This document shows positions 29,055 to 52,540 of a stretch of 64,000 nucleotides of DNA, piece after piece. The stretch spans positions 96,001 through 160,000 of the forward strand of contig OZ250186.1 of the NCBI GenBank assembly GCA_965238275.1, in the 5' to 3' direction. The first letter of the stretch is position 1. Every line of letters begins with the position of its first letter. The DNA comes from Nitrosopumilus sp. GTDB lineage: Archaea; Thermoproteota; Nitrososphaeria; Nitrososphaerales; Nitrosopumilaceae. The translations under genes and the position numbers were made by a program. The notes under the pieces were generated by a model that did not search any database, was not told the DNA's origin, and saw nothing but the letters and a program-made list of their open reading frames with translations.

Positions 29055-31356
29055 GTAAGAGGTCGCCTTTGCGAAGCGATTCCGTGCCTGATCTGCCCCG
29101 ATTAATTACCAACTGAGCTACGTTTTCGGCTGTAAATGCCCATTTAATTGGCATTATTCTGGGTTTTTTCCGGGCGGGGAGGAGGGTCCGGCCGAGCTAT
29201 GTTTTGGCCGATCCGGTGATCGGGTTTGCGAAGTGGCCTTTTTTGGCGCGGCCGGGGCGCTGAGTTGTGCCGGGATCGGGTGACAGCCGGTACGGCAGCC
29301 TGACATGCGCCAGACTGCCGGCGCGACGGGTCTGCGTGGGGCAGTCAGGATGGCGGGTTTTGCAGGATTTATGCGACTGTTGCTGCTGCTGCCGGAATTT
29401 TTTCGACGAGGCCGTGCATATAGTCGACCAAAAAGTCGTGCGGGTTGACTCCGCGCCTCCTGCACGTCTCGCGGACGGTGGCCAGGACGGCGTGGTTGTA
29501 TGCGCCGGCAAGGCTCTTGCTGCCGCCTGAGACCTTCCGGGATGCGACGCTGGGCCGCAGGGGACGCTCGGCATCGTTGTTATGGCACTTTGTGTTGAGG
29601 CGGATGAATGGGAACAGGTGGGTGATCTCGCGCCGCAGCCGCTTGACAAACCTCTTGCAGTGGGCGTCTGTGTAGCTGCCCGAGATCAGGCGCCTCACCC
29701 GGGCCTGGAGGTTGCGCACCTTGAGGTTTCGCGCGGCCTTGTCGTCGTCCGGGTCAAGCCCCTTGTCCGGGTACCATGAATCGATGATTATCCCCTTCAG
29801 GGCCTTGGCAAACTTTTTGAATTCGGGTCCGGGGGATTTCATGGTCAGGGTGCGGAGGATCTCGCGGAGGTAGTGGTAGTGGCACTTTTGGTGGGTCTTG
29901 CCGATGCGGTTCCACGGGGCGTGGGAGTCGGAGGTGACGTGGCCGCCGTACCCTCCAAGCAGCGACACCAGGACGTCGCCTCCCCGGCTCTTGTCCACGT
30001 GAAAGACAGTCGAGTCGTCACCTACCAGCACCCACAGCCAGTACAGTATCCCGGCTATCTTCCAGCTCGTCTCGTCGCCAAAGACATGCTCTGAGAAGAA
30101 TATCTCCCCGAGCATCTCCTCGTAGAGGGGGTGGAGGGATCCCGTAACGGCGTCCACGTGGCTGATGACTGTCGACTTGGCAAGGCCTGCGTGGTGGATT
30201 ATGTTGATCAGACTGCAGATGATGCCGTAGGGGATGCCGTGCATCCTCATGGTAGTCTCCAGGCACGTCAGGCTGGCACCGAACCGCCCCCCTGGGACGA
30301 CCCCGGGGATCTCGGGGGCAAACTGCCTGCCGCATTCCCTGCAGTACCTGCGGACGACTGTATATTGGATGGCAGTCAGTTTCCCGTCGATGATCTCCTC
30401 GACTACCCGGAAGGTCACCTCGGTGGGCCCCGTCGAGAGGGCGTGGCCGTGCGGGCAGGAGTGCAGGTCGACTAACCTCTTTTCAGATATCGGGGGAGGG
30501 TTCCGGCCGGTGCGCAGGCAGACGACCTTCCTGAACGGGTCCGGCGCAGGCCCGGGCGACTCCCGGAGCCGCCTCTTGGAGCGGCGGCTTTTGATGTCCA
30601 GGTTCTCTGCTGCCAGCGCCGAGTTGGCCGCGCGCGCCTCCCTTAGCTGCGAGGCATGCTCGGCTGCCTGCCGTTCCAGGCGGGCTATCCTGTCCATGAC
30701 TGCCTGCGAGACGTCGCATCCCTGCAGGAGGGCGGCGTTTTCTGCCCTCAGCTTCTCTACCTCTGCACTCAAATTCTCCACATCTGTTCCCAGATTCTCT
30801 ATCTCGGAGTCCTTTTGTTCTATCTCGGAGTCCTTTTGTTCTATCTCGGAGTCCTTTTGTTCTATCTCGGAGTCCTTTTGTTCTATCTCGGAGTCCTTTT
30901 GCACGTTCTCTTCTTCCAACAGTTTGATCCTGGTATCCATCTCCGTCAGCATCGCGCGTTCCCCTGAGAAGGCCTCTGCCTCCTCCCTCAACTGCTCGAT
31001 GTTTTTCCTCAGCGCCACGCTCTCCTCGTCCCGGGATTTGAGCATGGCAAGGACGGATTCGAAGATGGACTTTGTGTCGGTTACGGAGTTCCAGTCAATC
31101 TTTTCCAAGTCGATTACAGGCACCATGCCACAACACTGGAAGGCATGATCCATAAAGCTTTTGGACACGCAGCGTCTGCCGGGAAATGCGGCGCAAAAGA
31201 TCCGGCAGGTGAGCCTTGATTTGAAAACTGTCCTGCCTGCGGACCGTACTGATAACGTGCAATTAAATCGGGTATTTATGGTCGAAAACGTAGCTCAGTT
31301 GGTAATTAATCGGGGCAAATCAGGCACGGAATCGCTTCGCAAAGGCGACCTCTTAC
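29055..31356 (-). mobile_element. IS66-family element type B, copy 2; transposase about 31126-29369
   Basis: Same long TIRs as 21255-23446; 8-bp TSD GATTTTTT. Confidence 0.95.
30798..30901 (-). repeat. 21-bp tandem repeat x5 (QKDSEIE heptad) in the transposase coiled coil
   Basis: TCTATCTCGGAGTCCTTTTGT five times; copy 1 has a single unit. Confidence 0.95.
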
Positions 31357-32969: not shown

Positions 32970-35394
32970 CAGTAATCCCAGATGTGCCATCTAGCACCTG
33001 ATGCAAACAGATCAATGGGGGCACGCCCAGACGATCCTTATGTACCACCAAAAAGATCGCCTGAGACGCGATATGATGAACAATGGCAAAATATATGAAT
33101 CTGTTGAGAAGGTGCTGAGAGTGTAGTATACCGAAATAATGTCGCCTACTCATCAGTGTCTACCTCCATCCATTGGGGGTTGTCTTTTCTGATCTCATCT
33201 GTGGCCTTTCTTGCGGAAAACGCTCTGAGCGGTGTCTCACGGTTTGCCATGTCAAGTGAAAAGTGCAGCCTTCGCTCATTATAGTATTGGACATAGTCGG
33301 ACAGCGACTCGTAATGGTAAATCTCTTCCTCTATGCTGCGGTGGAACCGCTCCAGCTTTCCGTTGGTCTGTGGATGGTACGGCCGGGTGTTTATCAGTTC
33401 AATTCCGCGGTCCAGCAGCTCGGCCTCAAAGGCGGTGGGCTGCCATGATCCTGCAGCTGCCTTCCTTCTCCGGCCATCTTTTCCTTTCTTGTGCCTGCCT
33501 GCCGCGCCTACAAAGCATGAGCCGTTGTCAGACAGTATGGTGGCAGGTGTTCCAAACGTCTCGATCGCCTTTCGCAGCACGGCCACCGCGTTCTCAGAGG
33601 TGGCCTCGGTGAACATCTGTGCTGCTGCTATGCATCTGGATGAGTCATCCAGGTACGTTATCAGGTTGAGGCCCCTGAAGCGCGGATCCTTCATGACGTG
33701 CCAGTCCACATGCCACATTGCGTTCGAGTATTTCCTCTCAAAACGGACCCACTTTCTCTTCTTTGACTTTGCAGCCGAGGGCGTTACCAAACCATGCTCT
33801 TTCATGATCCTGTATGCCCGTCTGTAGCTTATATCGCAGTCTGTTTTGAGATTTCCTACCGTGCGCAGCACGCCTACCGGTTCCCGTGCGTGCATGTCCA
33901 GAACCCGCCGTATCTCGTCTTCGGTGGCCCGTATGGGCTTTCTTCCCGCTGGCATTGGAACGTGGTGGGATTCTGTCCTGCAGAACCGGGCGTACAGTCG
34001 CTGAACGTGCCTTTGTGAGACTCCTATCTCTTTGGCAATCTGGGACGTCTTTTGGCCTTTCCTGCACTGTGTGACTGCGTATCTGATTGTCTTTGCAGTC
34101 AGGCGTTTTATCAACGGTTTTCTTGACCGATAAAGGACAAAGTATTCCTTTGCAGTACGTCTAAAATTAGGACGACCTAATTTCGGTACAATAGAAGAAG
34201 GTGCTGAGAGAAAGCATCGTGCCGTCCGCCGAGGTCTCCAAAAGGTACAACGCGACATATGGCGCAAGCGACTTTAACGTCGGCATGCTGCATGCCGCGA
34301 TGCTTGACACTTCGGTCGGCGGATGCAGCTTCGCCATGAGAGAAATCACGGCGCAGTCCATCGAGAATCCAAGATATTCACGTCATTCTCCAAGCGACGA
34401 GTGGTTTCGCGATATCCTGTCCAAGACGGACGAGGGTAAGGCGCTTGAGACTTTTAACCAGGCGGTAAGGGCACAGCTGGATGAGCTTTACCTGTTTGGC
34501 AGGCTGCCTGATGTGCTTGATGTGGCCATCGACATGCACCTGATACCGTGCCACAGCAAGAAACTTGGCTCTGACCTGAGAGGCGGAGAGCGCAAGAGCG
34601 GCACCAACAGATTCGAGGCGTACATCACGGCGCAGTGCGTCAACTCCAAATCGCGGCTTATCCTTGCGGCCCTATACGTGGACAAGTCCTCATCCGTGCA
34701 CGAATCCCTGCGTGAAATCCTCAATTCGTGCCTAGAAAACGTCTCCGCCGTCGGATCCAGGCTGGGACTGATCCTGGTTGACAGGGGCTTCTTTTCAGTG
34801 AACTCAATATCCGAGATTGAGCGTCTTAGCCTTGAGTACCTGATGCCGTGCACCAGAACCAGTAGGGTGAAAGACTCGCTGCGCAAGTTCGTGGCCAAAA
34901 CGCTCGGCCCCATCTCAAAATCCGACATGACGAATTCTGACAAGGCAACGGTTCAGTACCACATGATCATAGCAGAGAAGAAGAGAGTAAGGAAGGAAAG
35001 TGAGGGGGCGAAGAACGGGGACAAGAAGGCAGGTGCGCCGGAAGATCGATACATTGCGTTTGCCACCAATGCCCCGTGGATGGATGTAGAGGAATATTCC
35101 AAAAGGTGGACCATCGAGACATGCTACAGACTGGTAGAGAATGCCAGGGCGAAATCGTTCGGCAGCAGTAGGCCTGCCCGGCTTTTCTGCTTTCTGTACT
35201 CGCTGATGCTATTCAATGCGTGGGTGCTGGTAAACGCGCAGCTGGCCAGCTTTCTGAAGCTGCGTGACGGAGTCCTTCCGGTGACGCAGCTGTATATGAA
35301 AATTGTCACGCTAATAGCAATCTATCGGAATATTACGATTCAGCCCGAGCCACCGCCAGATCCCGTGGCTCCGTGAGCACATCTGGGATTACTG
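32970..35394 (+). mobile_element. ISH3-family (IS4-like) element; transposase 33001/33040-33121 + 34211-35376, interrupted by IS481
   Basis: 18-bp TIR CAGTAATCCCAGATGTGC and 5-bp TSD TGTAC. Motifs AIDMH, VDRGFF, YSKRWTIETCYR. Confidence 0.92.
33122..34195 (-). mobile_element. IS481-family element; transposase about 34114-33146
   Basis: Imperfect TIRs TGTAGTATACCGAAAT / TCTATTGTACCGAAAT and 15-bp TSD AGAAGGTGCTGAGAG. Integrase core WHVDW, SDNG, PQTNGKLERF. Confidence 0.92.
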
Positions 35395-36809: not shown

Positions 36810-37250
36810 CGTAACAACTTGGAAAGACAGGCATGCAGACCGACCAGTCACTGATTCTCCAGCACGCACACCAGCGCCACGGCAAATTCGTCCATCGTGA
36901 CCTCTCCCTTGGCCGCCGGCGCATCCGGACGCGTCACCGCCAGACATGGGATGCACGGATAACATCCGTCAGACTCCTTGCCAGCAGGTCGTTTACGGCA
37001 TCAGAGAAGCTGTACGCCTTGTTGCCCTCCAGTATCTTCCTGGCCTGGTATTCCCTTATCCTGCGGTCCAGCCCGTCATCAACCAGGATTGTGGCACGTT
37101 TGGCCAATTCCTAGGCGCCCCCCGGCAGCACGTATTCCAGCATCGCGATAAACTTGTCCATGGTGACCTCTCCCTTGGCCGCCAGCGGCCCCAGCTCCGT
37201 CATCATCCAGCCCGGCATGTCGGCTCCGACGGGTTCAGTTTCCGCCAATC
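36810..37250 (-). pseudogene. transposase remnants (IS66-like) with an internal repeated fragment
   Basis: Two copies of GTCCAT(C/G)GTGACCTCTCCCTTGGCCGCC; homologous to 25505-25715. Confidence 0.5.
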
Positions 37251-40200
37251 TAGATGACGGCCTCGAAGGCATCCAATACCTGCATGGTCAGTATCGACCG
37301 GTTGGCATCCGACGTCCGGGCCACGATGTGGGTCAGATCCATGGCATCTGCAAACGTGATCCCAAACGTGATCACCTGCACGTTCCCGTCGGCGTCGATC
37401 GTGACTGCGGAGGATTCGACAAGATCGTGCGGATCGGTCACCGTGACGCTGCCCCGGTCGTACCTGACGTACGTGTCGCTGTCATAATATTGGTCGTCTG
37501 CACCGTGCAGGTTCAGGTACATAGTAAAGACTTCTATCGGCATGTCGCCATACACAGCAAAGCTGATGCTAGTCTCGTCCCCGACGCGCACTGTCTGCGG
37601 CTCGAGCGTGTTTCCGGTGCCAGTCAGCAGGTACCCGTAACCGTTTATCGATATGGGAAAGTCAAGCGCGCCGTCCATGATTATCGACGGGATGGGGGCG
37701 TTCGGGTCGTCAGCATAGTCGACGGGCTCGGGCGGGTGGATGCCCCACGCCCGCAGTATCCGGAGTTCGGACTCGTCAAAGTCGTCGGGATCCTGAAGTG
37801 TCATCTCGTCGGCCGGCGCGTCTAAAACGGCGGTCGCGGTGGTGGCAGATCCGGGATCCTCCAGGGATTCAGGCGCAGCGTGTCCGGGATACTCCCATGA
37901 CTCGATCGCCACAAAGTATTCCAAGGCGTTGACGAGCGTCTGCCTGTCCAGCGTGCCGTCTATGAACCACTTTGCGATATTCCTGAAGTAGTCGGGTACC
38001 GTCGTCCCCTGGAATCCGAACGCGCCCAGAAATTCCGCGTCATCGGCATATTCGGGGGAATAGCCGCCCCATGCCTTGAGTGTCTGGATTTCGGATGCGC
38101 CAAAGCCTCCCGCGGCGGGCTTCGGATCCGCCGTGATTTCTGCCGGTTCCGGTTCGGCGTCCGGTTCCGGCTCGACTGCCGGTTCTGTCAACGCCGTCGC
38201 CTCTGCCGGCATCGGCTCCGGCTCGACTGCCGCCTCCACCACCTCAAAGGCGTCGAGGACCTGCACCGTCAACAATGACAGGTCGGCGTTCCACAGCCGG
38301 GCCACCATGTTGGTCAGATCCATCTCGCCTGCAAACGTGATCTCAAACGTGATTACCTGCTTGTCCCCTCCGTCGGCCCGGATCGTGACTGTGGCAGACT
38401 CGATGAGACCGTGCGGGTCGACTATTTGGATGGTGCCGGCATCGTACCTGACGTAGGTGTCGCTGTCAGAATATTGGTCGTTTTCGCCGTGCAGGTTCAT
38501 GTACAGCGTAAAGTGCACTATCTGGACGCGGTCGTACACGGTAAATGAGATGGTGACGTTGTGTCCCGGGTGGATCGTCTGCGGCTCGAGCGTGTTCTTA
38601 ATGCCGCCAAGCAGGTACCCGTAGCCGTTTATCTCCAGGGGAAAGTCAAGGGAATCGTCTGCGGGCATGGGCGGGATGGGGGCGTCGGGATCGTGCGAAG
38701 TGGCGGTGTCTCGTATCTCCTGGGGGATCGACTGGAGGTACGATGCTATCGCGGAGTGGATGTCCAGTACCGGGACCGACGATTGCCGGGACTTGCTGGA
38801 TGAGGGATGGCTGACGGTTATGTTGTCGACTGTCCCAAGGGAATTGCCCGCAAGGTCCCGTATTCCAGAACCGGTGTATTCCAGGGTGAGCGCGGGCTTG
38901 CCGTCCGGGATGTCGCCGGAGAGGCCGAGCGTTATGGAGCTGCTGCCGGAGGGATCGGGGGCGTCGTCTACCGTTATGCTGTTGCCGCCATCGCCATCGC
39001 CGACGATGGATACTGACCAGTCAGCAGCGCCGGTGCTGCCGGTGACCCTCTCGGAGAACGACACCACGATTCCATCATTCCCGGACACCCGGGCAGACGA
39101 CACCGCCGGGTCAGTCAGGTCGACAGTCACGCTCGCGCTTGCGGCCCTAAACGTGTCGCCTTCCAGGGTGGTGACCGTGCGGGTCGGGATTGACACGGTC
39201 TGCCTGCCTTCTGAAAGGTTGTTCACGGTAACATCATACGAGGCAGCATTAGAGGACGGGGTTATGGCACCCACCGTTCCGCTGGTGGCGGTTACGGCAG
39301 AGACGAGCGTGCCGCGGTCAATGTCCCTGCCAAAGGAAAAGCCAAAGGATACAGTCTGGGAGTTTGTGACGGGAACGTCTGCGGTGATGTTGGCCGTAAG
39401 CGTTTGCGTGGGTATGCGGACCGTCACGGAGTCGGTGCCGGTGTTTTCCTCAGCACTGTTGTCAGTTACCGTGAGCCGGAAGGTCAGCGGGGTGGCAGAC
39501 GCCATTTCTGGCGTGAAGGTCGCGACTGCGCTGTTGACGTTGCTCAGGAATACCGTGCCTCCGCGGATCTGCTCCCACAAGTATGTCAGGGTGTCGCCGG
39601 GGTTTGGATCAAAGGAGGCAGAGCCGTCAAGGGTAACCGTTACGTCGGAGAGCGGGCGGTCCCTGACTGTCTGGTCGGGTCCGGCGCGCGCGACGGGACT
39701 GTTCCCGGTGGGCGGGGGAACGTCGTCTACCGTGATCGTGACGGTATCCGTGTCGGTGCCGCCGTTGCTGTCGTCTACGGTGAGGGTGAGCGTCACAGAG
39801 CCGCCTGACGTTTCCACGTCGGGTGCGGTAAACGTCGGGGACGCGGTGTTGGCGTTGTTCAGCGTAACTGACAGGCCGCCGGTTCGCGCCCACGAGTATG
39901 ACAGGGTGTCGCCGTCCGGATCAGAGGAGTCGGTGCCGTCAAGGGTGACCTGTTCCCCCTCGTTCACGGCCTGGTCGGGCCCGGCGTCCGCATTGGGGGC
40001 CTGGTTGGCGACCACGTTGTTTACCGTGATCGTGACGGTATCCGTGTCGGTGCCGCCGTTGCTGTCGTCTACGGTGAGGGTGAGCGTCACAGAGCCGCCT
40101 GACGTTTCCACGTCGGGTGCGGTAAACGTCGGGGACGCGGTGGTCGGACCGTTCAGGATGACTGGCAGGCCGCCGGTTCGCGCCCACGAGTATGACAGGG

Positions 40201-42727
40201 TGTCGTTGTCCGGATCAGAGGAACCGGTGCCGTCAAGGGTGACCTGTTCCCCCTCGCTCACGACCTGGTCGGGCCCGGCGTCGGCGTCGGGGGCCTGGTT
40301 GGCCTGGCCCGTCACGGTAATATCAAAGGCGGAGCTCAGCGCGTACTCGTTGACGTCGTTCCCGTCGGTTCCCGCCACGAACATCTTGTCGCCGTCAGAA
40401 GAAAACGCGAGGCCGACGGGGGAGGTATCCTGGTCACTGACTGAAAACGAGTCCGTAAAGTTGGCAGTGGTGATGCTAAAGGGAGTAGACAGCGCGTACT
40501 CGTTGACGTCGCTCCCGGTGGCTCCCACCACGAACATCTTGTCGCCGTCAGAAGAAAACGCGAGGCCGACGGGGGAGGTATCCTGGTCACTGACTGAAAA
40601 CGAGTCCGTAAAGTTGGCAGTGGTGATGCTAAAGGGAGTAGACAGCGCGTACTCGTTGACGTCGCTCCCGGTGGCTCCCACCACGAACATCTTGTCGCCG
40701 TCAGAAGAAAACGCGAGGCCGACGGGGGAGGTATCCTGGTCACTGACTGAAAACGAGTCCGTAAAGTTGGCAGTGGTGATGCTAAAGGGAGTAGACAGCG
40801 CGTACTCGTTGACGTCGCGCCCGAAGAGTCCCGCCACGAGCATCTTGTCGCCGTCAGAAGAAAACGCGAGGCCGGCGGGGAAGGTATCCTGGCCACTGAC
40901 TGAAAACGAGTCCGTAAAGTTGGCAGTGGTGATGCTAAAGGGAGTAGACAGCGCGTACTCGTTGACGTCGCTCCCGGTGGCTCCCACCACGAACATCTTG
41001 TCGCCGTCAGAAGAAAACGCGAGGCCTCGGGGGAGGTCATCTTGGGCACTGACTGAAAACGAGTCCGTGAATACTGCCGTAGAGACGTCAAAGGTGGCCG
41101 CAAACGCGGTGCCGGACGTGTCCTGGACTGCACCCGGATCGATCGTGAGTTCGGGAGTGGTCAGCGCGTTCACGGCGGCGAGTTTGGCAGTAGTCAGCGT
41201 AAAGGAAACGGTGGCCGAGCCCGAAGTGGTGCCAAGCTCCGCTGCAGACAGCGTGACGCCGCCGGTGGACGTGTTTTTCTCCCTTATGTGGAACTTTGTC
41301 GGGTCTATGTCCGTAGACGGCGTGGCGTCTATGATTTCGCTGAACGTTACCGCCAGCACGCCGGTGCCGCGGTCAAGCGTGGCAGAGACAAACGTGGGCG
41401 GCTGGTTGGCCTGGCCCGTCACGGTAATATCAAAGGCGGAGCTCAGCGCGTACTCGTTGACGTCGCGCCCGGTGGCTCCCACCACGAACATCTTGTCGCC
41501 GTCAGAAGAAAACGCGAGGCCGACGGGGGAGGTATCCTGGTCACTGACTGAAAACGAGTCCGTAAAGTTGGCAGTGGTGATGCTAAAGGGAGTAGACAGC
41601 GCGTACTCGTTGACGTCGCGCCCGGTGGCTCCCACCACGAACATCTTGTCGCCGTCAGAAGAAAACGCGAGGCCGACGGGGGAGGTATCCTGGTCACTGA
41701 CTGAAAACGAGTCCGTAAAGTTGGCAGTGGTGATGCTAAAGGGAGTAGACAGCGCGTACTCGTTGACGTCGCTCCCGGTGGCTCCCACCACGAACATCTT
41801 GTCGCCGTCAGAAGAAAACGCGAGGCCGACGGGGGAGGTATCCTGGTCACTGACTGAAAACGAGTCCGTAAAGTTGGCAGTGGTGATGCTAAAGGGAGTA
41901 GACAGCGCGTACTCGTTGACGTCGCGCCCGAAGAGTCCCGCCACGAGCATCTTGTCGCCGTCAGAAGAAAACGCGAGGCCGGCGGGGAAGGTATCCTGGC
42001 CACTGACTGAAAACGAGTCCGTAAAGTTGGCAGTGGTGATGCTAAAGGGAGTAGACAGCGCGTACTCGTTGACGTCGCTCCCGGTGGCTCCCACCACGAA
42101 CATCTTGTCGCCGTCAGAAGAAAACGCGAGGCCTCGGGGGAGGTCATCTTGGGCACTGACTGAAAACGAGTCCGTGAATACTGCCGTAGAGACGTCAAAG
42201 GTGGCCGCAAACGCGGTGCCGGACGTGTCCTGGACTGCACCCGGATCGATCGTGAGTTCGGGAGTGGTCAGCGCGTTCACGGCGGCGAGTTTGGCAGTAG
42301 TCAGCGTAAAGGAAACGGTGGCCGAGCCCGAAGTGGTGCCAAGCTCCGCTGCAGACAGCGTGACGCCGCCGGTGGACGTGTTTTTCTCCCTTATGTGGAA
42401 CTTTGTCGGGTCTATGTCCGTAGACGGCGTGGCGTCTATGATTTCGCTGAACGTTACCGCCAGCACGCCGGTGCCGCGGTCAAGCGTAGCAGAGGAGAAC
42501 GTGGGCGGCGTCTGGGCGTGCGCTTCCATTGGGTAGTCGATGAAGATTATGTCGGCTGCGAGGAATGCCACGGCCACGCATGCCAACGCGACATGCAGCC
42601 AAGCCCTGCGCCTGGTAGAAGATCCTCGTTCCGGATGGGTTGCTGCATAATTTTTATGCCGAAAACTGATATCATAATGGCTATTATGCACCGTAGTTTC
42701 GACGTTATAATGAATCCGGGCGCCCAA
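37250..42727 (-). CDS. giant secreted/surface protein: signal peptide, two beta-propeller modules, PKD/Ig-like domains, thaumarchaeal surface motif
   Basis: RRRAW plus a hydrophobic stretch and AHA cleavage site. 47-aa GLAFSSDG repeats; NQAP.ADAGPDQ domains; VPDYFRNIAKWFIDG motif. True start is probably at or near 42691, inside the inversion site. Confidence 0.9.
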   Translation of the reverse strand: MGARIHYNVETTVHNSHYDISFRHKNYAATHPERGSSTRRRAWLHVALACVAVAFLAADIIFIDYPMEAHAQTPPTFSSATLDRGTGVLAVTFSEIIDATPSTDIDPTKFHIREKNTSTGGVTLSAAELGTTSGSATVSFTLTTAKLAAVNALTTPELTIDPGAVQDTSGTAFAATFDVSTAVFTDSFSVSAQDDLPRGLAFSSDGDKMFVVGATGSDVNEYALSTPFSITTANFTDSFSVSGQDTFPAGLAFSSDGDKMLVAGLFGRDVNEYALSTPFSITTANFTDSFSVSDQDTSPVGLAFSSDGDKMFVVGATGSDVNEYALSTPFSITTANFTDSFSVSDQDTSPVGLAFSSDGDKMFVVGATGRDVNEYALSTPFSITTANFTDSFSVSDQDTSPVGLAFSSDGDKMFVVGATGRDVNEYALSSAFDITVTGQANQPPTFVSATLDRGTGVLAVTFSEIIDATPSTDIDPTKFHIREKNTSTGGVTLSAAELGTTSGSATVSFTLTTAKLAAVNALTTPELTIDPGAVQDTSGTAFAATFDVSTAVFTDSFSVSAQDDLPRGLAFSSDGDKMFVVGATGSDVNEYALSTPFSITTANFTDSFSVSGQDTFPAGLAFSSDGDKMLVAGLFGRDVNEYALSTPFSITTANFTDSFSVSDQDTSPVGLAFSSDGDKMFVVGATGSDVNEYALSTPFSITTANFTDSFSVSDQDTSPVGLAFSSDGDKMFVVGATGSDVNEYALSTPFSITTANFTDSFSVSDQDTSPVGLAFSSDGDKMFVAGTDGNDVNEYALSSAFDITVTGQANQAPDADAGPDQVVSEGEQVTLDGTGSSDPDNDTLSYSWARTGGLPVILNGPTTASPTFTAPDVETSGGSVTLTLTVDDSNGGTDTDTVTITVNNVVANQAPNADAGPDQAVNEGEQVTLDGTDSSDPDGDTLSYSWARTGGLSVTLNNANTASPTFTAPDVETSGGSVTLTLTVDDSNGGTDTDTVTITVDDVPPPTGNSPVARAGPDQTVRDRPLSDVTVTLDGSASFDPNPGDTLTYLWEQIRGGTVFLSNVNSAVATFTPEMASATPLTFRLTVTDNSAEENTGTDSVTVRIPTQTLTANITADVPVTNSQTVSFGFSFGRDIDRGTLVSAVTATSGTVGAITPSSNAASYDVTVNNLSEGRQTVSIPTRTVTTLEGDTFRAASASVTVDLTDPAVSSARVSGNDGIVVSFSERVTGSTGAADWSVSIVGDGDGGNSITVDDAPDPSGSSSITLGLSGDIPDGKPALTLEYTGSGIRDLAGNSLGTVDNITVSHPSSSKSRQSSVPVLDIHSAIASYLQSIPQEIRDTATSHDPDAPIPPMPADDSLDFPLEINGYGYLLGGIKNTLEPQTIHPGHNVTISFTVYDRVQIVHFTLYMNLHGENDQYSDSDTYVRYDAGTIQIVDPHGLIESATVTIRADGGDKQVITFEITFAGEMDLTNMVARLWNADLSLLTVQVLDAFEVVEAAVEPEPMPAEATALTEPAVEPEPDAEPEPAEITADPKPAAGGFGASEIQTLKAWGGYSPEYADDAEFLGAFGFQGTTVPDYFRNIAKWFIDGTLDRQTLVNALEYFVAIESWEYPGHAAPESLEDPGSATTATAVLDAPADEMTLQDPDDFDESELRILRAWGIHPPEPVDYADDPNAPIPSIIMDGALDFPISINGYGYLLTGTGNTLEPQTVRVGDETSISFAVYGDMPIEVFTMYLNLHGADDQYYDSDTYVRYDRGSVTVTDPHDLVESSAVTIDADGNVQVITFGITFADAMDLTHIVARTSDANRSILTMQVLDAFEAVI
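39729..40300 (-). repeat. two near-identical PKD-like domain units, 294-bp period
   Basis: GGTTCGCGCCCACGAGTATGACAGGG at 39881 and 40175. Confidence 0.9.
40295..42500 (-). repeat. 1107-bp tandem duplication, each unit with five 141-bp blade repeats
   Basis: Identical shadow ORFs offset by 1107 bp; blade repeats are nearly identical at DNA level. Confidence 0.95.
42661..42700. other. putative recombination site, left
   Basis: GAAAACTGATAT-CATAA-TGGCTA-TTATG-CACCGTAGTTTC: dyad arms around an asymmetric 6-bp spacer. 31/40 identical to the reverse complement of 42828-42867. Confidence 0.75.
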
Positions 42728-42800
42728 AATGCCAAAGAACCGGTCATTTTTGCCATATTTGGGGCCTCAAGGCACCATTTTAGGATGTTTTTTATCACAT

Positions 42801-42839
42801 TATTAATATATATGAGTAACATTAAATGAAATCACGTTG
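42801..42839 (+). promoter_or_regulatory. TATA box and TTG start inside the putative invertible segment
   Basis: TATTAATATATATG at 42801-42814, about 30 nt upstream of TTG 42837, which is archaeal leaderless spacing. Confidence 0.6.
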
Positions 42840-42867
42840 CGTAATAGCCATTATGCAGTCACATTTC
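42828..42867. other. putative recombination site, right, inverted relative to the left site
   Basis: GAAATCACGTTG-CGTAA-TAGCCA-TTATG-CAGTCACATTTC. Spacer TAGCCA is the reverse complement of TGGCTA. Confidence 0.75.
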
Positions 42868-42917
42868 GTGATATTGTTACAAACATGGCGCGTTTGGGGG
42901 CAGGCAGGCACCTTGCA

Positions 42918-43003
42918 GGGCAGGTTTGGGGCAGGTTTGGGGCAGGTTTGGGGCAGGTTTGGGGCAGGTTTGGGGCAGGTTTGGGGCAGGTTTGGGGCAG
43001 TTT
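42918..43003 (+). repeat. 11-bp tandem repeat GGGGCAGGTTT, about 8 units
   Basis: Six perfect units plus shortened first and last units. Confidence 0.95.
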
Positions 43004-43074
43004 CGGGCCCGGCACCCGGCGCGCCGGGGCACCGGTTTTGATGCGGATTAAATATCTAAAGCAGGTTATGGATA

Positions 43075-44616
43075 GTGATGGGCAGCTGCTATAAGATGCT
43101 GCGCCCCGTGAATGATGACGATTTGGACAAGGCGGATCCAGACGTCGCCACGATCCTGAAGAAACTGCCGCCCGAGGGCCACCTGGACGCGAGCCGGATG
43201 GAACCACGCGGCCGCGACGCGCTTGCGTGGGCGTGTTCCCGCGGCATAATGCGCAGGACAGACTCCGGGGACTGCATGATGAGATTCGAGAGCGTGAAAT
43301 TCTGGATCGCGCAGCTCAACTCGCCGGGCGCCAAGAACATCCGCATCCGCAGGGGCACCAGGCAGTCATACGCGGCCGCGCTCGGGACCTTTGACGAGTG
43401 GTTGCGGGGCCGGAAATTCCCGGTAACGCGGGACGGTGCCGGAGGAGGAGGAGATGGAAAGGCAGGGAATGCGGAGGCGTCATTTTCTGACGTGGGGGAG
43501 ATGCTGCGCTTCTGCCAGAATTCCATCCACGGCGCCCGCGCCGCAAAGCGCGTCGTGCGGGAGTACCTTGCCCACCTTGCGTCTGCCGGATATTCCAAGT
43601 CCACCGCGACGGTGCGCTGCTCTGCGATAAAGTCGTACTTTGCGGTGCACGACGTGCCAGTCGACGTGAAGGTGGGCAAATTCAGGTACGCCCAGGACAA
43701 CGGGAACCCCGAGCTGAGCCTGTCGGACTTTTACAAGATGGTGTATTCGGGAAGCATGGGCCCCATGATGAGGGCCATAACGCTGGTAAAGTTCCAGGCC
43801 GGGCTGGATTCCTCGACGCTTGCCGACCGCTTCAACTTCGAGGCGTACCCCCAGATAGTGAGGCACTTTGGCGTGGAGGACTATGACTCCTGGGACCTGG
43901 ACAAGTGCCCGGTCCCGATAAAACTGACAAGGCTGAAGACCGGCATGCCGTACACCACCTTCATAGACCGCGATGCCGTGTCGCAGCTGCGGGACTACCT
44001 GAGGTGGAAGGAGTCCAGGCACGGCAAGCACGACGGGACGGGGCCGCTGTTCGTGACGCGGCGCGGCACGCCGGTCAGCCCGATCTGGATATCGGTCCGC
44101 TTCTCCAAGGCCGCATCAGACGCGGGCGTGCAAAAAAAGTTCTCGCGCGGCTACTACAGGGTGCGCGCCCACGAGGTGCGCGACCTGTTAAAGTCGACGC
44201 TGGTGGCCGCCGGGTGCGCGCAGTACGCCGCAGACCACGTGCTCGGGCACGCCCCCAAGGACTCCTACGAGAAGCAGGCCACGCTGTACCCCGAGGCGCT
44301 CAGGCGGGAATACTCCAAGGCGTCGGGGTACCTCAACGTGTTTACCAGTTTTGAGAGGTACCTGGAGATGGTGTCGGGCCCGCCGCGGGAAGGTGCTGGC
44401 GGCGGCGGCGGCGGCGGCGGCGGCCAGCCTGCCACAATGCAGCAGCAGCAGCAGCAGCAGCAGCCGCAGGACGCGCAGGCCGCATTCCAGGGGATGGCCT
44501 CTGCCATGTCAGGCATGGCCAGGATAATGCTGCAAAGTCCGGACGTGCCAGACGATCTTGCGCGCGTGCTCAGGGACCTGGAAGGCATCGGGGGACGGGA
44601 CGGCAAACAAGGATGA
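43075..44616 (+). CDS. tyrosine recombinase/integrase
   Basis: SAM-like domain (YSKSTA...AIKSYF), RLKTG, GPLFVT, RAHEVR, LGH and DSY. Box I reads QAGLDSST rather than TGxRxxE. Poly-G/poly-Q tail. Alternative start at 43096. Confidence 0.88.
   Translation: MMGSCYKMLRPVNDDDLDKADPDVATILKKLPPEGHLDASRMEPRGRDALAWACSRGIMRRTDSGDCMMRFESVKFWIAQLNSPGAKNIRIRRGTRQSYAAALGTFDEWLRGRKFPVTRDGAGGGGDGKAGNAEASFSDVGEMLRFCQNSIHGARAAKRVVREYLAHLASAGYSKSTATVRCSAIKSYFAVHDVPVDVKVGKFRYAQDNGNPELSLSDFYKMVYSGSMGPMMRAITLVKFQAGLDSSTLADRFNFEAYPQIVRHFGVEDYDSWDLDKCPVPIKLTRLKTGMPYTTFIDRDAVSQLRDYLRWKESRHGKHDGTGPLFVTRRGTPVSPIWISVRFSKAASDAGVQKKFSRGYYRVRAHEVRDLLKSTLVAAGCAQYAADHVLGHAPKDSYEKQATLYPEALRREYSKASGYLNVFTSFERYLEMVSGPPREGAGGGGGGGGGQPATMQQQQQQQQPQDAQAAFQGMASAMSGMARIMLQSPDVPDDLARVLRDLEGIGGRDGKQG
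44398..44463 (+). repeat. GGC and CAG trinucleotide runs encoding poly-Gly and poly-Gln
   Basis: A GGC run followed by a CAG run in the recombinase tail. Confidence 0.9.
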
Positions 44617-45581: not shown

Positions 45582-46088
45582 ATGATCGTGCACAAATCCG
45601 GCATCGTACTAGTGGGCTCCGGAATGGCAATCATAGCAGGACTGGTTCTCATAACTGTGGGAAACCAGATAGTGTTGGACGGGGTCATTCAGGGCGAGGC
45701 AGACGTCAGTATCGGGGAGCCCCTGATCGTGCAGGGCGGGTTTGACCCGGAGGACGGGCAGAAGGGAATCTTTGCACTGCAGATAATGGAGTTTCAGGAC
45801 GGCGTGTTTCACGCAAGGGTGATTGACCCGCACGGCACCGAGATTGTATCAGAGGAGATCGGCGGCGAGTCCCTCGAGATGGAGTTTGACGTGACAGGTG
45901 ACGGGGAGTACAGGCTGGTCGTGGAGGGGACCAACAGCGTACAGACGCACGTGTTTGGCGCCATAGGACCGCTTCCGGATGCAGGCAAGAAGGCACTCGG
46001 GTTCGTGTCAGTGTACGTGCTGCTTGCAGGCATGGCGGGGCTTGTCGGGGGAGGAGCATACACCCTTTGGAAGAGAAGATCAGTTTAG
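45582..46088 (+). CDS. membrane protein (two TM helices flanking a beta domain)
   Basis: N- and C-terminal hydrophobic helices; resembles conserved thaumarchaeal hypotheticals. Confidence 0.8.
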   Translation: MIVHKSGIVLVGSGMAIIAGLVLITVGNQIVLDGVIQGEADVSIGEPLIVQGGFDPEDGQKGIFALQIMEFQDGVFHARVIDPHGTEIVSEEIGGESLEMEFDVTGDGEYRLVVEGTNSVQTHVFGAIGPLPDAGKKALGFVSVYVLLAGMAGLVGGGAYTLWKRRSV

Positions 46089-46397
46089 GTAGCTGTCCAT
46101 CTTTTCAAGGCCGCTTACGGCCCCATCAAAGTTGTCGCCGTCCTCTATTATGCCGGTGAGTTTTTCGGTGTCTGCAGAGAGGAGATGACTGCCGTCGCCG
46201 TCTGATGATTCCTCGTTTATGAACCCGTGGGCAATCAGGTATGAGAGTCTGTCAAGTACCTCGGACTCGGGGACAGATGCGTGCTCTGCCAGAACGCTGC
46301 ACTCCTTTGCCCCGTCCTCAAGCTCTGCAAGAATTGAGGATGTCACAGGATCAAACATGCAGTTGACCACCTTTTCCCTATCAAAGGACTCGTCCAT
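46080..46397 (-). CDS. winged-helix (ArsR-like) protein
   Basis: FDPVTSSILAELEDG.K....LAE......SEVLDRLSYLIAHGFI. Confidence 0.8.
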   Translation of the reverse strand: MDESFDREKVVNCMFDPVTSSILAELEDGAKECSVLAEHASVPESEVLDRLSYLIAHGFINEESSDGDGSHLLSADTEKLTGIIEDGDNFDGAVSGLEKMDSYLN

Positions 46398-46969: not shown

Positions 46970-47641
46970 CTATAGGTTAAGCACGAACTCAGAGATGACT
47001 GCCGTAACGAAACCGTGAAACATATTCCCCGCATACATGATCAGTATCGCCAGCACCAAGACCACTGCGGATCTGGCGTACCCGAATCCGTTCAGTATCC
47101 GGATCGCTTTTGCCTGTAGCAGGAGCGTCCACCCGATAAAGAGGAACCCGATGGCAAACTGGAACAAGGAGAAAGGTATACCGTCTCCAGACGTCAGGAT
47201 CAGCCCATCAGAAAGGACAATATCTGGAACTGCGAGGCTGTATAGGCTTTCTGCTGCTGTGACCGCCAGAACCCCCAGTATGCTAGGAACCAAACAGTAC
47301 ACCAATGCCGGAAACGCCCTTCGAAAACTGCGGTTCCCTCCCCACCTTCTTCCAACCCAAAAGATTCCCATAATGGGCAGCATGCCTAGAACGAACCTGA
47401 TAATCAAGCTGTATAGAGTGTCATCCCATGTGATGTCGTTCATCTGATATCCGACGTAGCCCCATGGGAGCAGCACCCCCAGGACAACTGTGGTTGCAAA
47501 TACCGCCACAGACGGCACAAGGTACATGCCAGGATTATCGGATATGCGGCAAAGCGTTGTTCCGGGCCGCGCTATCATGCCGTAAAGTGCCAAGACTGCG
47601 TTTTGCATGCCCCGCCCATTCATGCCAACTGTCATCCACAC
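46970..47641 (-). CDS. Yip1-domain membrane protein, copy 1
   Basis: MIARPGTTL, GRRWGGNRSF and Y..VP motifs; about five TM helices. Confidence 0.8.
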   Translation of the reverse strand: MWMTVGMNGRGMQNAVLALYGMIARPGTTLCRISDNPGMYLVPSVAVFATTVVLGVLLPWGYVGYQMNDITWDDTLYSLIIRFVLGMLPIMGIFWVGRRWGGNRSFRRAFPALVYCLVPSILGVLAVTAAESLYSLAVPDIVLSDGLILTSGDGIPFSLFQFAIGFLFIGWTLLLQAKAIRILNGFGYARSAVVLVLAILIMYAGNMFHGFVTAVISEFVLNL

Positions 47642-48101: not shown

Positions 48102-48764
48102 TCAAAGCACGAATTCCAGTATGGCTACCGTAACGGTGCCGTGAAACATATTCCCCGCATACATGATCAGTATCGCCAGCACCAGGACTACTGCGGATCT
48201 GGCGTATCCGAATCCGTTCAGTATCCGGATCGCTTTCGCTTGTAGCAGGAGCGTCCACCCGATAAAGAATAACCTGATGAGAAGCTGGATCGCGGGGAAA
48301 AATATACCGTCTCCAAGCGTCAGGCCCGGTCCATCAGAAAGGACGATCTCTGGAACTGTGAGATGGTATATGCTTCCTGCTGCAGTGGCTGCCAGAACCC
48401 CCAGCATGCTAGGAACCAAGCAGTACGCCAATACCGGAAACGCCCTCCGAAAACTACGGTTTCCGCCCCACCTTCTTCCAACCCAAAAGATTCCCATAAT
48501 GGGCAGCATGCCCAGTACGGAGTTGATAATCAAGGCGTATATCGTGCCATCCCATGTGATGTCGTTCATCGGATATCCAGCGTAGTCAGAGGGGAACAGC
48601 ACGGCCAGGGCAACTGTGGTTGTTGCAAATACCACCACAGACGGCACAAGGTACATGCCAGGATTATCGGATATGCGGCAAAGCGTTGTCCCGGGCCGCA
48701 CTATTATGCCGTAAAGTGCCAAGACTGCGTTTTGCATGCCCCGTCCATCCATACCGACTGTCAT
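48102..48764 (-). CDS. Yip1-domain membrane protein, copy 2
   Basis: Close tandem paralog of 46970-47641. Confidence 0.8.
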   Translation of the reverse strand: MTVGMDGRGMQNAVLALYGIIVRPGTTLCRISDNPGMYLVPSVVVFATTTVALAVLFPSDYAGYPMNDITWDGTIYALIINSVLGMLPIMGIFWVGRRWGGNRSFRRAFPVLAYCLVPSMLGVLAATAAGSIYHLTVPEIVLSDGPGLTLGDGIFFPAIQLLIRLFFIGWTLLLQAKAIRILNGFGYARSAVVLVLAILIMYAGNMFHGTVTVAILEFVL

Positions 48765-49022: not shown

Positions 49023-49211
49023 AGAAAACAAAAATAACCTAAAACTATTCAAATTGTATGATTCTTTTGTATTTCCGGTGCTGAGATTGCCCAAGGACAA
49101 TTCTGCCTGAGAAATTCAAGAGGCACATTCAGAGTGGCAAATACACCAGCATTTGGAGAAAAACTGCCCGGATATCACAGTTATAAGCGACATCACGACA
49201 TACGCTTCGTA

Positions 49212-50618
49212 TTGAAGTACCTGGTTCTGTTTTTGATCATAGCCGCATCCCTTGCAGTATCGCAGTCATACGCTGCATTCGAGTCCCCCCTAAAACAGAC
49301 GCAGGCAGGTGTTCCATCAGACGAGATACGATGCAATGACGACCGGGTTCTGGTAATCTTCCAAAGCGGCCGCCCTGCGTGCATATTTGAGACCACTGCA
49401 CAAAGACTTGGATTGGACCCCATAGAACCCAGTACCAATAGTCTCCTTGCCAATGCCACGGTCATACACGCAGCTGATGCAGACCCGGTAACCCCGCCTG
49501 AAATTGCGACTGCAAACAACAATTTTGCAGTGGATTTTTACAGTCAGATCTCAGACGGGGATGACAACATGTTCTTTTCACCCATCAGCATGTATACTGC
49601 ATTTTCAATGCTGTATGAGGGCGCCCAAAACAACACCGCAGAGGAGATGCAACAGACATTTGCCTTTGAGCCTGATCAAATCCCACGTCACAACTCCACT
49701 GCCCACCTCATATCATCCATAAACCGCGACGATCCGGATGCCACACTCGATATGGCAAACTCGCTGTGGCTTGCCGACTGGTTTGTTCCCTACGAGTCGT
49801 ACACGGACGTGGTACGCAGTACGTATCTTGCAGAAATAGAGAGTGTTGACTTTTTAGATGCCAGTGATGCGGGCGGGGTACCGCGAATAAACGCATGGGC
49901 CAATGAAAAGACACACGGCAAGATACCGAAGGTTCTGAAGGCTGATGATGTGAAGGAATCCACCGCAGCCGTGCTTCTAAACGCCATATACTTCAAGGGT
50001 ACCTGGAAGACGCAATTCTTCGAGGAGAGCACGCTGGAATCCGACTTTTGGACAAGCCCTGCGCAGAGCGTCAGGACAGATTTCATGAACATGAAAGGAT
50101 TTTTTGACATGGCGCAATTGGACAATCTTCAAGTCCTGAAACTCCCATACAAAGGAGACAGACTGTCCATGCTGATAATACTGCCATCGGACAGGGACGG
50201 CATACAAAAGATAGAAGAGACGCTCGCATCAGAGCAGATAGGGCAATGGAGACAGAGTATGCAGAATACCGAAGTCGAGATAAAAATGCCAAAATTTGAG
50301 ATGAAAACACATTATGACCTCATACCTCATCTTAAGAATCTCGGGATGGCAGATGCCTTTGATATGTTTGATGCGGATTTCTCAGGGATACAGGATGTCT
50401 CATCTGGGAATCTGTTCGTGTCAAAGGCAATCCAGGATGCATATGTAAAGGTAAACGAGGAAGGAACAGAGGCAGCTGCCGTAACTACCATTGTGCAGGA
50501 CCAAATGATGTTGCCAGAAGTTGCATCATTTGTTGCAGATCACCCATTCCTGTTTGTAATACAGGACGATGAGAGCGGGATGGTTCTATTCATGGGAAGG
50601 GTCTCTGATCCGTCATAA
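49212..50618 (+). CDS. secreted serpin (serine protease inhibitor)
   Basis: Signal peptide, SPLKQ..GV..EI.C N-domain, NMFFSPIS, LLNAIYFKGTW, hinge EEGTEAAAVT, FVADHPFLF. TTATAA 31 nt before TTG 49212. Confidence 0.95.
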   Translation: MKYLVLFLIIAASLAVSQSYAAFESPLKQTQAGVPSDEIRCNDDRVLVIFQSGRPACIFETTAQRLGLDPIEPSTNSLLANATVIHAADADPVTPPEIATANNNFAVDFYSQISDGDDNMFFSPISMYTAFSMLYEGAQNNTAEEMQQTFAFEPDQIPRHNSTAHLISSINRDDPDATLDMANSLWLADWFVPYESYTDVVRSTYLAEIESVDFLDASDAGGVPRINAWANEKTHGKIPKVLKADDVKESTAAVLLNAIYFKGTWKTQFFEESTLESDFWTSPAQSVRTDFMNMKGFFDMAQLDNLQVLKLPYKGDRLSMLIILPSDRDGIQKIEETLASEQIGQWRQSMQNTEVEIKMPKFEMKTHYDLIPHLKNLGMADAFDMFDADFSGIQDVSSGNLFVSKAIQDAYVKVNEEGTEAAAVTTIVQDQMMLPEVASFVADHPFLFVIQDDESGMVLFMGRVSDPS

Positions 50619-50943: not shown

Positions 50944-52540
50944 AGAGAATATGCGTAATCCCCCTGTCCACATCGATAAATTTAGATCAGGCACGATCGT
51001 GTCTCACATCAAATGCCAGACTCGCCTGATCAGATCATATACAAGTTGCAGCAGGAAAACAAAAGACTAAAAAATATTCTAAAGCAGAAAGACAAAAAGC
51101 TGGAGCAGAAAGACAAAAAGCTGGAGCAGGAAAACAAAAGCCTAAAAAATATTCTAAAGCAGAAAGACAAAAAGCTGGAGCAGAAAGACAAAAAGCTGGA
51201 GCAGGAAAACAAAAGCCTAAAAAATATTCTAAAGCAGAAAGACAAAAAGCTGGAGCAGAAAGACAGGGAGCTGGGCCTTGAGCGCGGCCTGTGGAAGAGC
51301 AGGGACGATGGCTGGAACCCCGGCAAGGGGCCCGCGCTGCATCTGCTAGAGGTGCTAGACGACATAATACGCGACGGGGACAAGCTCCGCCATGCCACGC
51401 TGGCAGACGGGGAACAGTTCCGGTACATGCTGGAGCGGGCCAAGGTGTTTCTGACGCATTCGGGCCAGATGCCGCTGTTCTGCGATAACGCATCCCGGGC
51501 CTCCGATCCCGGAAACCGGTGCAAGCTGCACCTGAGGCACGCGCTGCTCATGGCGCTGATGCACAAAAAGGAAAACATCACGCAGGGAACGCTTGCCGCG
51601 TTCTTCGGGATAGACCAGTCCACCGTGTCCCGGTACTTTCCTGTGATGGACGCGATGCTGGCAGGAATACTTCCGACGGCAGACAACATATCCGAGGAGG
51701 TAGCTGCTGCCCCGACCAGGGAAGATTTCAAGAAGATCGTGCCCGGATCGGATGGGGGCGAGATCTTCATAGACGGCACGCACTGCCCCATACAGCGCCC
51801 GTCCGTAAAGTCAGTCCGGCGCATGAAATACTCCGGCAAGAAGAAAAAGTTTACCAACAATACCAACGTGTACACCAACCGGAACGGGGTGGTGATCGGC
51901 ATATCAAAAAGCACCGTCGGGTCAGTCGGCGACATCACGCTGCTCAAGGAACGCCCCATGCCGTTTGGAAAGTGGGAGAAGGCGATGCACGATCCGGACC
52001 TGCCAGAATCAGACAGGTGCCACCCATTCGTCGACCGCGGCTACCAGGGAATCGCAGACCACCTGCCCGGCACCACGCCGGAGATCCCGCACAAGAAGAC
52101 CAGGGACACGCCGCTGACGCCGGAGCAAAAAAAGCACAACCACAGGATCAACTCCACCCGGGTGTTGGTGGAGCACACGATAGGCAGGCTCAAGCGCTAC
52201 GCGCGCCTCACCGACCCGTACGACGGCAACGCAGCCGGGTTCAACAGGGAGTTCAACGTGATCACAGGGCTGGTAAACCTGAATCTTTTGTGGGACTGCA
52301 TGGAAAAGGGCCCGCCACCACCGGGGCAGTGGAAGACGTCAGTAGACTGGGACAGGGCCTGCTCCCAAGCTCCGGTCAAGTAGAATTCAGGGCACGATGA
52401 AGTGCTGCAAGGCTGCGCACGTCATTTTGGATTTTGGGGTGAACGGACTTGCCACATGCCAGACACGAGTAGTTTTAGGCCGTATTTTTCCGGTTTTTTA
52501 TGACCGAGTTGGCGAAATGGGCGGATTACGCATATCTTCT
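50944..52540 (+). mobile_element. IS5-like (DDE_Tnp_4-type) element, complete; transposase 51013-52383
   Basis: TIRs AGAGAATATGCGTAATCC / AGAAGATATGCGTAATCC, 3-bp TSD AAT, DDE motifs. Confidence 0.95.
51051..51264 (+). repeat. 75-bp tandem repeat, about 3 units, with nested 21-bp QKDKKLE heptads
   Basis: Units start at 51051, 51126 and 51201. Confidence 0.93.

Follow-up and report, generated by a model that had tools for sequence, protein, structure and literature searches.

Promoter inversion as a means of phase variation is typical of host-associated bacteria, whereas mechanisms of surface phase variation are, to our knowledge, not known from ammonia-oxidising archaea. Whether such a mechanism may exist among them is the question raised by a short intergenic region of Nitrosopumilus sp., located in a 64,000-nt stretch of contig OZ250186.1 (hereafter the window, whose positions serve as coordinates unless genome coordinates are indicated). 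The genome concerned (G000) is complete, with a single contig of 2,216,668 bp, and is assigned to an ammonia-oxidising archaeon because it encodes archaeal amoA. The region separates the gene of a giant secreted or surface-type protein (37250-42727, minus strand) from a divergent tyrosine recombinase gene (43078-44616, plus strand), and an original prediction, made from the sequence, had described it as an ON/OFF switch in which the recombinase inverts a promoter and a start codon. The analysis presented here partly supports this interpretation: the segment 42678-42850 is probably the part that flips in a site-specific inversion switch (inverton). The support is comparative and comes from six loci in four genomes and two genera, inversion being deduced from their architecture and not observed. 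Below, P1 designates the switch at 42678-42850 together with its recombinase, and P2 the locus of the closest recombinase paralogue in the same genome.

Inverted sites and the segment between them

Two 40-bp sites lie between the genes, each of them a dyad of 17-bp arms around an asymmetric 6-bp spacer. Site 1, on the side of the giant gene (42661-42700), consists of an outer arm (42661-42677), the spacer TGGCTA (42678-42683) and an inner arm (42684-42700) that contains a GTG on the minus strand (42691-42689). Site 2, on the recombinase side (42828-42867), consists of an inner arm (42828-42844) with a TTG on the plus strand (42837-42839), the spacer TAGCCA (42845-42850) and an outer arm (42851-42867). 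Both dyads had been predicted and are present at exactly these positions, with spacers that are exact reverse complements of each other. Recomputation also returned the predicted identity of 31/40 as inverted repeats (arm differences at 9/34 positions, spacer differences at 0/6) and the 14-nt perfect core, formed by the spacer and adjoining bases, that is common to both sites; as direct repeats, the sites are alike at only 25/40 positions (hand count). The proposed invertible segment measures 167 bp between spacer starts, its left part being richer in GC and its right part carrying an AT-rich promoter module. Inverted sites, identical crossover regions and a short segment between them, as expected of an inverton, are thus all found at P1. 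An additional dyad, GCATAA-TTT-TTATGC (42645-42659), likewise predicted and present, has a 3-bp spacer, lies 2 nt from site 1 and is possibly an accessory binding site.

The sites are highly distinctive. With up to two mismatches, the full degenerate site pattern had two matches in the window, namely sites 1 and 2, against a mean of 0.00 in 100 shuffles of the window, none of which reached two. A 16-nt core pattern (up to one mismatch) matched only sites 1 and 2 in the whole 2,216,668-bp genome, where the reversed pattern used as control had no match. The pair was also the top inverted repeat of a repeat search (46 nt, 76% complementary, 127 nt between arms), and the 241-bp region of the element matched itself alone in its own genome, besides chance matches of 13-17 nt.

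Promoter module, start codons and reading frame

The maximal open reading frame (ORF) of the giant gene is intact and encodes 1825 aa, with a signal-peptide-like N-terminus (RRRAWLHVALACVAVAFLAA...AHA-Q) and the Pfam domains K319L-like PKD, PKD_4, Big_9, Cadherin_5 and REJ; a C-terminal membrane anchor was looked for in the protein and none was found. No in-frame ATG precedes the signal peptide, and the only usable starts as assembled are GTG 42691, in the inner arm of site 1, and TTG 42727. A recent internal duplication was also seen in this gene (41093-41431 versus 42200-42540), residues 64-176 recurring with 92% identity about 1.1 kb downstream.

Promoters were scored with a matrix derived from the genome itself (1098 crude gene calls, followed by an expectation-maximisation motif search), which gave a consensus of transcription factor B recognition element (BRE) and TATA box, AAAAAATTTAAATC. 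Upstream of the 1098 gene calls, AT content is highest at -36 to -24 relative to the ATG, and the consensus starts mostly 35-38 nt ahead of the start codon, so that many mRNAs are expected to be leaderless in this organism. Only one strong promoter-like site is found between the two genes, a palindromic BRE/TATA-like element at 42797-42814 that can be read on both strands. On the plus strand it scores 9.5, 8.7 and 8.3 bits with a predicted start at 42832-42839, where the TTG of site 2 lies (42837). Read on the minus strand, the element reaches 10.6 bits and the start is predicted at 42779-42776, where an ATG opens an ORF of only three codons. The predicted TATA box about 30 nt before the TTG thus agrees with the matrix, while the accompanying statement that this box points away from the giant gene is too simple, the element being palindromic.

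Inversion in silico places TTG 42837 in frame with the giant gene, in an open frame of 1813 codons, as had been anticipated. The companion claim that GTG 42691 has no correctly spaced TATA box also holds, since no minus-strand match above 4 bits is placed correctly for it in the intergenic region. Leaderless TTG and GTG starts are reportedly weak in haloarchaea. As assembled, the TTG in the inner arm opens an 85-codon plus-strand ORF (42837-43094) that ends 17 nt past the recombinase ATG; it is probably a by-product, or else corresponds to a read-through transcript into the recombinase gene. On its way it crosses a tandem array of about eight copies of the 11-nt unit GGGGCAGGTTT (42918-43005, plus strand), situated between the switch and the recombinase promoter. 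This array contains G-runs and 7-nt gaps, and its copy number varies: a contig from one sequencing run (X1, see below) omits 66 nt, equal to six units (42917 to 42984), which keeps the frame of the 85-codon ORF. At P2, CCTG-type repeats occupy the matching position.

The adjoining recombinase

The recombinase gene starts 211 nt from site 2 and encodes 512 aa from ATG 43078 (the ORF list has GTG 43075 as start). A TATA-like element on the plus strand (TTAAATAT, 43041-43062) is placed for leaderless expression from ATG 43078, with matrix scores of 5.8 bits (start 43076-43079) and 8.5 bits (start 43084-43087), and similar elements are found upstream of the recombinase paralogues.

The sequence is divergent. 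In Pfam, Phage_int_SAM_1 is matched with 24.6 bits (cut-off 22.3) and Phage_integrase with 21.4 bits, below its cut-off of 27.1; matches to XerA and XerC in NCBIfam are weak, those to integrase families in PHROGs marginal, and a sequence search of the PDB returned low-complexity matches only. The fold is more informative. An AlphaFold2 model built with 20 homologues (predicted local distance difference test 69.9, predicted template modelling score 0.39, poor around residues 392-403) gave 20 Foldseek matches in the PDB at E<=0.001, the best being XerA (5hxy, 5.3e-6) and others at the top being lambda Int, IntI, XerD, XerH and Tn1549 Int. The modelled SAM-like core-binding and catalytic domains place the protein in the tyrosine recombinase superfamily, and the profiles, the model and the fold search together uphold the predicted nature of this gene. 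K287, H365, R368, H391 and Y397 are invariant in 20/20 aligned homologues. The nearly invariant R251 might substitute for the canonical first catalytic arginine, a position considered further below.

The family is multicopy and patchy, with seven copies in this genome and matches at E<=1e-20 in 15/61 genomes of the genus. Close homologues (E<=1e-120) occur in 6 of 151 genus genomes, this one included. At E<=1e-60, 23/401 genomes sampled from the order have matches, all in one family, and this sample added one genome from another genus (G363). No relatives of the recombinase were found by tblastn among 592 pattern matches in metagenome contigs. In one homologue (G061, L037 105-1643), which may be a pseudogene or a truncated form, an internal TAG comes after residue 438 and a conserved C-terminal region continues beyond it.

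A second switch-like locus in the same genome

Next to the closest paralogue of the recombinase (60% identity; G000:1235723-1237507) come two giant-gene paralogues, 745 and 1909 aa long and about 50% identical. The best inverted repeat upstream of the first giant-gene paralogue consists of two sites built like those of P1, with similar inner arms and a different spacer (AATGTA at 1237988-1237993 and TACATT at 1238176-1238181, genome coordinates). A scan of the 2.2-Mb genome for six free bases followed by TTAYG, and then, within 40-600 bp, for CRTAA followed by the reverse complement of those six bases, returned two matches, P1 and P2 only. The internal promoter-like match of P2 faces the giant gene, with a start predicted at 1238165-1238171; an ATG GTG lies there in the inner arm, in frame with the signal peptide as assembled (656 codons).

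The interiors of P1 and P2 align only when their orientations relative to the target gene are opposite (z 3.5, with 3/300 shuffles as good), the other orientation giving z 0.85 (56/300 shuffles as good); a shared polarity of base composition may contribute to this contrast. No comparable site pair was found upstream of the other recombinase paralogues of this genome, among which P3, P4, P6 and P7 have in common only a leaderless promoter motif upstream.

Switch-like loci in other genomes

The search of relatives for site pairs beside homologous recombinases, proposed with the original prediction, was fruitful. Five further loci share the architecture of P1: P2 in the same genome, G145-a, G145-b and G129 in two further species of the genus, and G363 in another genus. 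A site-specific recombinase is therefore found nearby at P1 and at the five others, each of which adjoins a paralogue or homologue of the P1 recombinase; in the four outside this genome the distance is 36 nt to 1.05 kb. In four of the five cases a homologous giant gene has its 5' end there, and the giant genes of the various loci are homologues of each other.

G145-a (spacers GGATCA/TGATCC) lies between a giant gene of at least 1963 codons, which runs off the fetched stretch, and two tandem recombinase genes of the subclade, which thus adjoin a single switch (L074 9142-12781). G145-b (TTACAA-TGCCCA-TTGTAA and TTACAA-TGGGCA-TTGTAA) is placed between a giant gene of 1985 aa and a divergent recombinase. 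G129 (TTAAGA/TCTTAA) is located just upstream of the recombinase and divergent from a 162-aa helix-turn-helix (HTH)-like ORF. G363 is a 25-nt perfect inverted repeat with GACAA-AGGACA-TTATC (AGGACA/TGTCCT), flanked by the recombinase and by a giant gene that encodes at least 2789 aa.

Distances between spacers at the six loci are similar (167, 188, 148, 148, 167 and 168 bp), and the spacers differ among all six, with only 0-4 of 6 bases common between loci. At 6/6 loci the centre of a TATA-like element lies 34-43 nt from one spacer (by matrix in five, by eye in G363), and a start codon is found in the inner arm on the TATA side, within a few nucleotides of the predicted leaderless start. In the orientation towards the outside gene, this start runs into it in frame and without a stop at 5/6 loci: P1 flipped (1813 codons), P2 as assembled (656), G145-b flipped (1993), G129 as assembled (162) and G363 as assembled (at least 2789). 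The frame fits at P1 and G145-b only after inversion in silico, a match that is meaningful only if inversion occurs. As assembled, P2, G129 and G363 face their target gene, and P1, G145-a and G145-b face away.

A general detector for dyad sites that have a 6-nt spacer and occur as inverted pairs was also run on 91 fetched loci (549,600 bases, partly overlapping). It returned four distinct pairs, all beside subclade recombinases; three are loci already counted and the fourth, G129:C100, is a perfect 19-nt inverted pair, 80 nt from a contig end and 1.2 kb from a recombinase with a gene between, which is possibly a seventh locus. In the P1 genome the detector gave five matches, one of them P1, compared with 0 in three shuffled genomes; the other four are intragenic or away from recombinases. 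Two candidates found elsewhere were not retained. A 30-nt inverted repeat (77%) in G145 L073 was rejected, being apparently inside an ORF, and an 11-nt inverted repeat with TGCGTAA in G006 (L064 5017-5134) was not counted, its putative spacers being mismatched; the latter, which flanks about 100 bp with a TATA-like element, lies upstream of a 2868-aa giant gene with no recombinase nearby.

Proposed mechanism of switching

On this architecture, the recombinase would bind the four 17-bp arms of sites 1 and 2, and strand exchange inside the identical 6-bp spacers would flip the segment of roughly 167 bp. The segment would contain a single promoter of the archaeal BRE/TATA type, about 39 nt away from the site 2 spacer. 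Transcription from it would begin at TTG 42837 in the inner arm and run outward across the recombination site, and the mRNA would be leaderless. Its start codon would sit inside that site, which would place the crossover within the coding frame. In the assembled state the module would face the recombinase gene and leave the giant gene with a GTG lacking a correctly spaced promoter (low or OFF); in the flipped state promoter and TTG would be joined in frame to the 1813-codon giant ORF (ON). We infer in this way present-day strand exchange, the recombinase as its agent, the positions of transcription starts and the expressing state.

Orientation in sequencing runs and strains

Inverted reads, which the original prediction had suggested counting, were sought in public sequencing runs by comparison of Logan contigs. 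Six runs are listed, of which four (X1-X4) hold part of the window, none of them on record as RNA. X2-X4 give no cover over 42671-42938; in X1, which alone covers the switch, a contig spanning 42498-42781 crosses site 1 in the orientation of the assembly. Both orientations within one population were hence not seen, on the thin data of X1. X1 also reveals a second strain, with seven differences within the segment, at 42782-42832, of which two fall in the TATA element, and with the last base of the extra dyad changed (42659 C>T). In this strain neither site 1 nor the conserved blocks of either site differ. The 40-nt site pattern had no match in metagenome and genome contigs, a set that may lack records close to this genome.

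Alternative explanations

Several results weigh against inversion at P1. First, no strand-changing joint was found in the contigs of the four runs, only X1 covering the switch, at a depth of roughly 9-17; this is weak negative evidence, since contigs drop rare variants and the depth is low. Second, the DNA of 42540-43080 had no match in 40 relatives, and orientation is not comparable between strains because no relative carries the P1 locus. Third, the palindromic TATA element scores higher toward the giant gene, with an 87-nt leader to GTG 42691. It might drive a leadered transcript in that direction, for which reason 'OFF' may mean 'low'; the claim that the assembly represents the OFF state is uncertain, the GTG lacking a correctly spaced promoter and the palindrome scoring at least as well toward the giant gene. 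Fourth, the canonical first catalytic arginine of the recombinase (GLR) reads GLD in all 20 aligned homologues. Fifth, the arms are degenerate, the P1 partners agreeing at 31/40 positions and one outer arm of P2 being poor, and G145-a is out of frame, its 66-codon ORF ending 8 nt before the ATG of the gene; a run of 12 G lies in the G145-a leader (L074 13960-13975), between the switch and the giant-gene ATG, and if its length changed, or the assembly were wrong at this point, the inner-arm ATG and the gene would stand in a different frame relation. Finally, no such pair was found at eight or more subclade recombinase loci (G145 L073, G129 L076 and L079, G061, G017, G006, G363 L095 and L097).

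Part of this evidence would suit operators: the recombinase or another DNA-binding protein would bind the dyads, perhaps loop the DNA and co-regulate both genes, with no rearrangement. Each site overlaps a predicted 5' end (the plus-strand start at 42832-42839 for site 2, GTG 42691 for site 1), additional half-site copies exist (42645-42659 at P1, and extra CCGGCATAA arms inside the G145-a segment), a small HTH gene is encoded 3 kb away (46080-46397), and the lack of inverted junctions among the contigs is what operators would produce. The spacers speak otherwise. In the five tabulated pairs, partner spacers are mismatched at 0/30 positions, a figure partly built in, and to that extent a further point against inversion, because 4/5 of the extra pairs were found by methods using exact seeds or exact spacers. 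Arms are mismatched at 61/170 positions and the five arm bases adjacent to the spacer at 7/50 (Fisher p = 7.5e-6 for spacer versus all arm positions, 0.04 versus proximal arm bases), and the sixth pair, G363, is perfect throughout 25 nt. Operators have no need of spacers that are reverse-complementary within a pair, nor of a perfect repeat. Contact with a protein would hold the spacer constant across loci, so its variation between loci argues against operators; recombination sites are favoured because spacers are identical within a pair yet free between pairs, as strand exchange demands. Operators also leave unexplained a distal inner-arm start that is in frame only after inversion (P1 and G145-b), and a promoter module whose site is gene-proximal in three loci and distal in the other three. 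They are considered an unlikely explanation.

A relic, in which the family once inverted and the P1 copy is frozen as assembled through decayed arms or an inactive recombinase, is judged improbable. Partner arms that differ at 9/34 positions, the family-wide GLD, the lack of inverted contigs and the seven strain differences, two of them in the TATA element, could all be read as decay. Yet the recombinase ORF is intact with HxxR, H and Y conserved, the giant ORF is intact over 1825 codons, the spacers with their adjoining bases form a perfect 14-nt match, and the second strain leaves the conserved blocks of both sites unchanged. As for GLD, it is found throughout the family, also at loci with perfect repeats such as G363.

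The pair could in principle represent the ends of a small non-autonomous element, i.e. a miniature inverted-repeat transposable element (MITE) or foldback element, or else att sites left by an integrase-linked mobile element, and the setting is compatible with mobility: the recombinase family is multicopy and patchy, transposase genes are nearby (29369-31168, 34201-35376 and 51013-52383), and the giant and recombinase genes form a GC-rich island (60-64% GC versus 52.7% for the genome). Both forms of this very improbable explanation were rejected. A MITE or foldback element does not agree with a 241-bp region that is single-copy in the genome and shows no target-site duplication beside the arms. 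Att sites of integrated elements are direct repeats, whereas the P1 pair is inverted and only 167 bp apart, with the recombinase outside it and no tRNA gene in the window.

That the repeats are a functionless chance resemblance is scarcely credible: inverted pairs of similar length do arise in GC-rich or low-complexity intergenic DNA, where several were seen, but shuffled sequence is expected to yield no matches, the genome has no further copies of the sites and the architecture recurs at five further recombinase-linked loci.

Comparison with known inversion systems

The inversion switch proposed for P1 has a close counterpart in fimS of Escherichia coli, where a short segment between inverted repeats carries the promoter of a surface structure and the FimB and FimE recombinase genes adjoin. 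The common features are a recombinase gene beside a short promoter segment bounded by inverted repeats and, in G145-a, even two tandem recombinase genes. The differences are substantial. At P1 each site is a full dyad (17-bp arms, 6-bp spacer), and the promoter is of the archaeal BRE/TATA type; the mRNA is predicted to be leaderless, with its start codon in the recombination site and the crossover inside the coding frame; and the recombinase, of about 510 aa, has an extra N-terminal domain and only marginal similarity to known integrases.

In the vsa/HvsR system of Mycoplasma pulmonis and the vpma/Xer1 system of Mycoplasma agalactiae, a tyrosine recombinase links a single expression site, made up of a promoter and the 5' end of a gene, to a surface-protein ORF by site-specific inversion. 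There, as here, the recombination site lies in or beside the 5' coding region of that ORF. Those bacterial systems shuffle several silent genes and have leadered mRNAs, in contrast to the one target and two states per switch envisaged here. Ureaplasma mba (PMC3047005, PMC3599477) is counted here among the surface-antigen inversion systems of this kind.

Invertons as called by PhaseFinder and PhaVa are short segments between inverted repeats, and in many cases the segment is a promoter beside a surface gene (PMC10028968, available text). According to the same text, PhaVa detected 12 putative archaeal invertons in 42 genomes, of which 36 were Euryarchaeota and six Crenarchaeota, with no ammonia oxidiser among them; archaeal promoter inversion, so far as that source goes, amounts to a handful of computational calls in these two groups. 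PhaVa invertons are called from reads in both orientations, whereas P1 was recognised by its sequence architecture. In the available part of a review of archaeal tyrosine recombinases (PMC8371274), phase variation appears as a bacterial role only, and archaeal inversions as large chromosomal events or outcomes of assays. The archaeal XerA/dif system, as presented there, resembles P1 in its fold and in a core site of two inverted arms around a 6-bp spacer. It differs in that XerA resolves dimers by acting on a single dif site in each chromosome, and integrases of archaeal mobile genetic elements use direct att repeats. The word 'inversion' has 0 occurrences in the text obtained of a survey of thaumarchaeal mobile elements (PMC6563490). 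Literature searches found no report of such a switch in ammonia-oxidising archaea, the archaeal inverton list of PhaVa (supplement of PMC10028968) being outside that comparison.

Other features of the window and genome

The window contains further genes of note. Two tandem genes of Yip1-domain membrane proteins (46970-47641 and 48102-48764) are 81% identical to each other, and a 494-aa serpin with a signal-peptide-like N-terminus is encoded at 49134-50618 (Pfam Serpin, E 1e-116). As to the transposase genes, the first belongs to the IS66 family, the second to DDE_Tnp_1 and the third to DDE_Tnp_4, of which copies 89-91% identical lie near the recombinase paralogues P5 and P6. Elsewhere in the genome, a MITE-like element of about 90 bp with the terminal inverted repeats GAGACRTAATCCGTAAT...ATTACGGATTAYGTCTC is present in at least 11 copies (e.g. 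615471-615544), one of them just downstream of the recombinase paralogue P7. A nearly perfect inverted repeat, with arms of about 45-55 nt roughly 300 bp apart, is intergenic beside a 456-aa gene (G000:1948241-1948606).

Biological meaning

As a tentative wider proposal, these loci could represent a family of self-contained archaeal invertons in one family of ammonia oxidisers. Each would combine a dedicated recombinase with a cassette of about 150-190 bp holding a leaderless promoter and a start codon, with the crossover falling inside the reading frame, and arms and spacer would have co-evolved with each recombinase paralogue. One and the same promoter would drive a giant adhesin-like gene in one state and face the recombinase gene in the other, making the whole a self-regulating toggle for surface phase variation. 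If so, the start codon of a leaderless mRNA inside a recombination site would be a design not described for bacterial invertons, and several recombinase/site pairs with distinct spacers and arms could serve as orthogonal tools for archaeal genetics. For the organisms themselves, such switches would mean heritable and reversible heterogeneity in giant adhesin-like surface proteins, with a bearing on attachment, symbiosis and the evasion of viruses.

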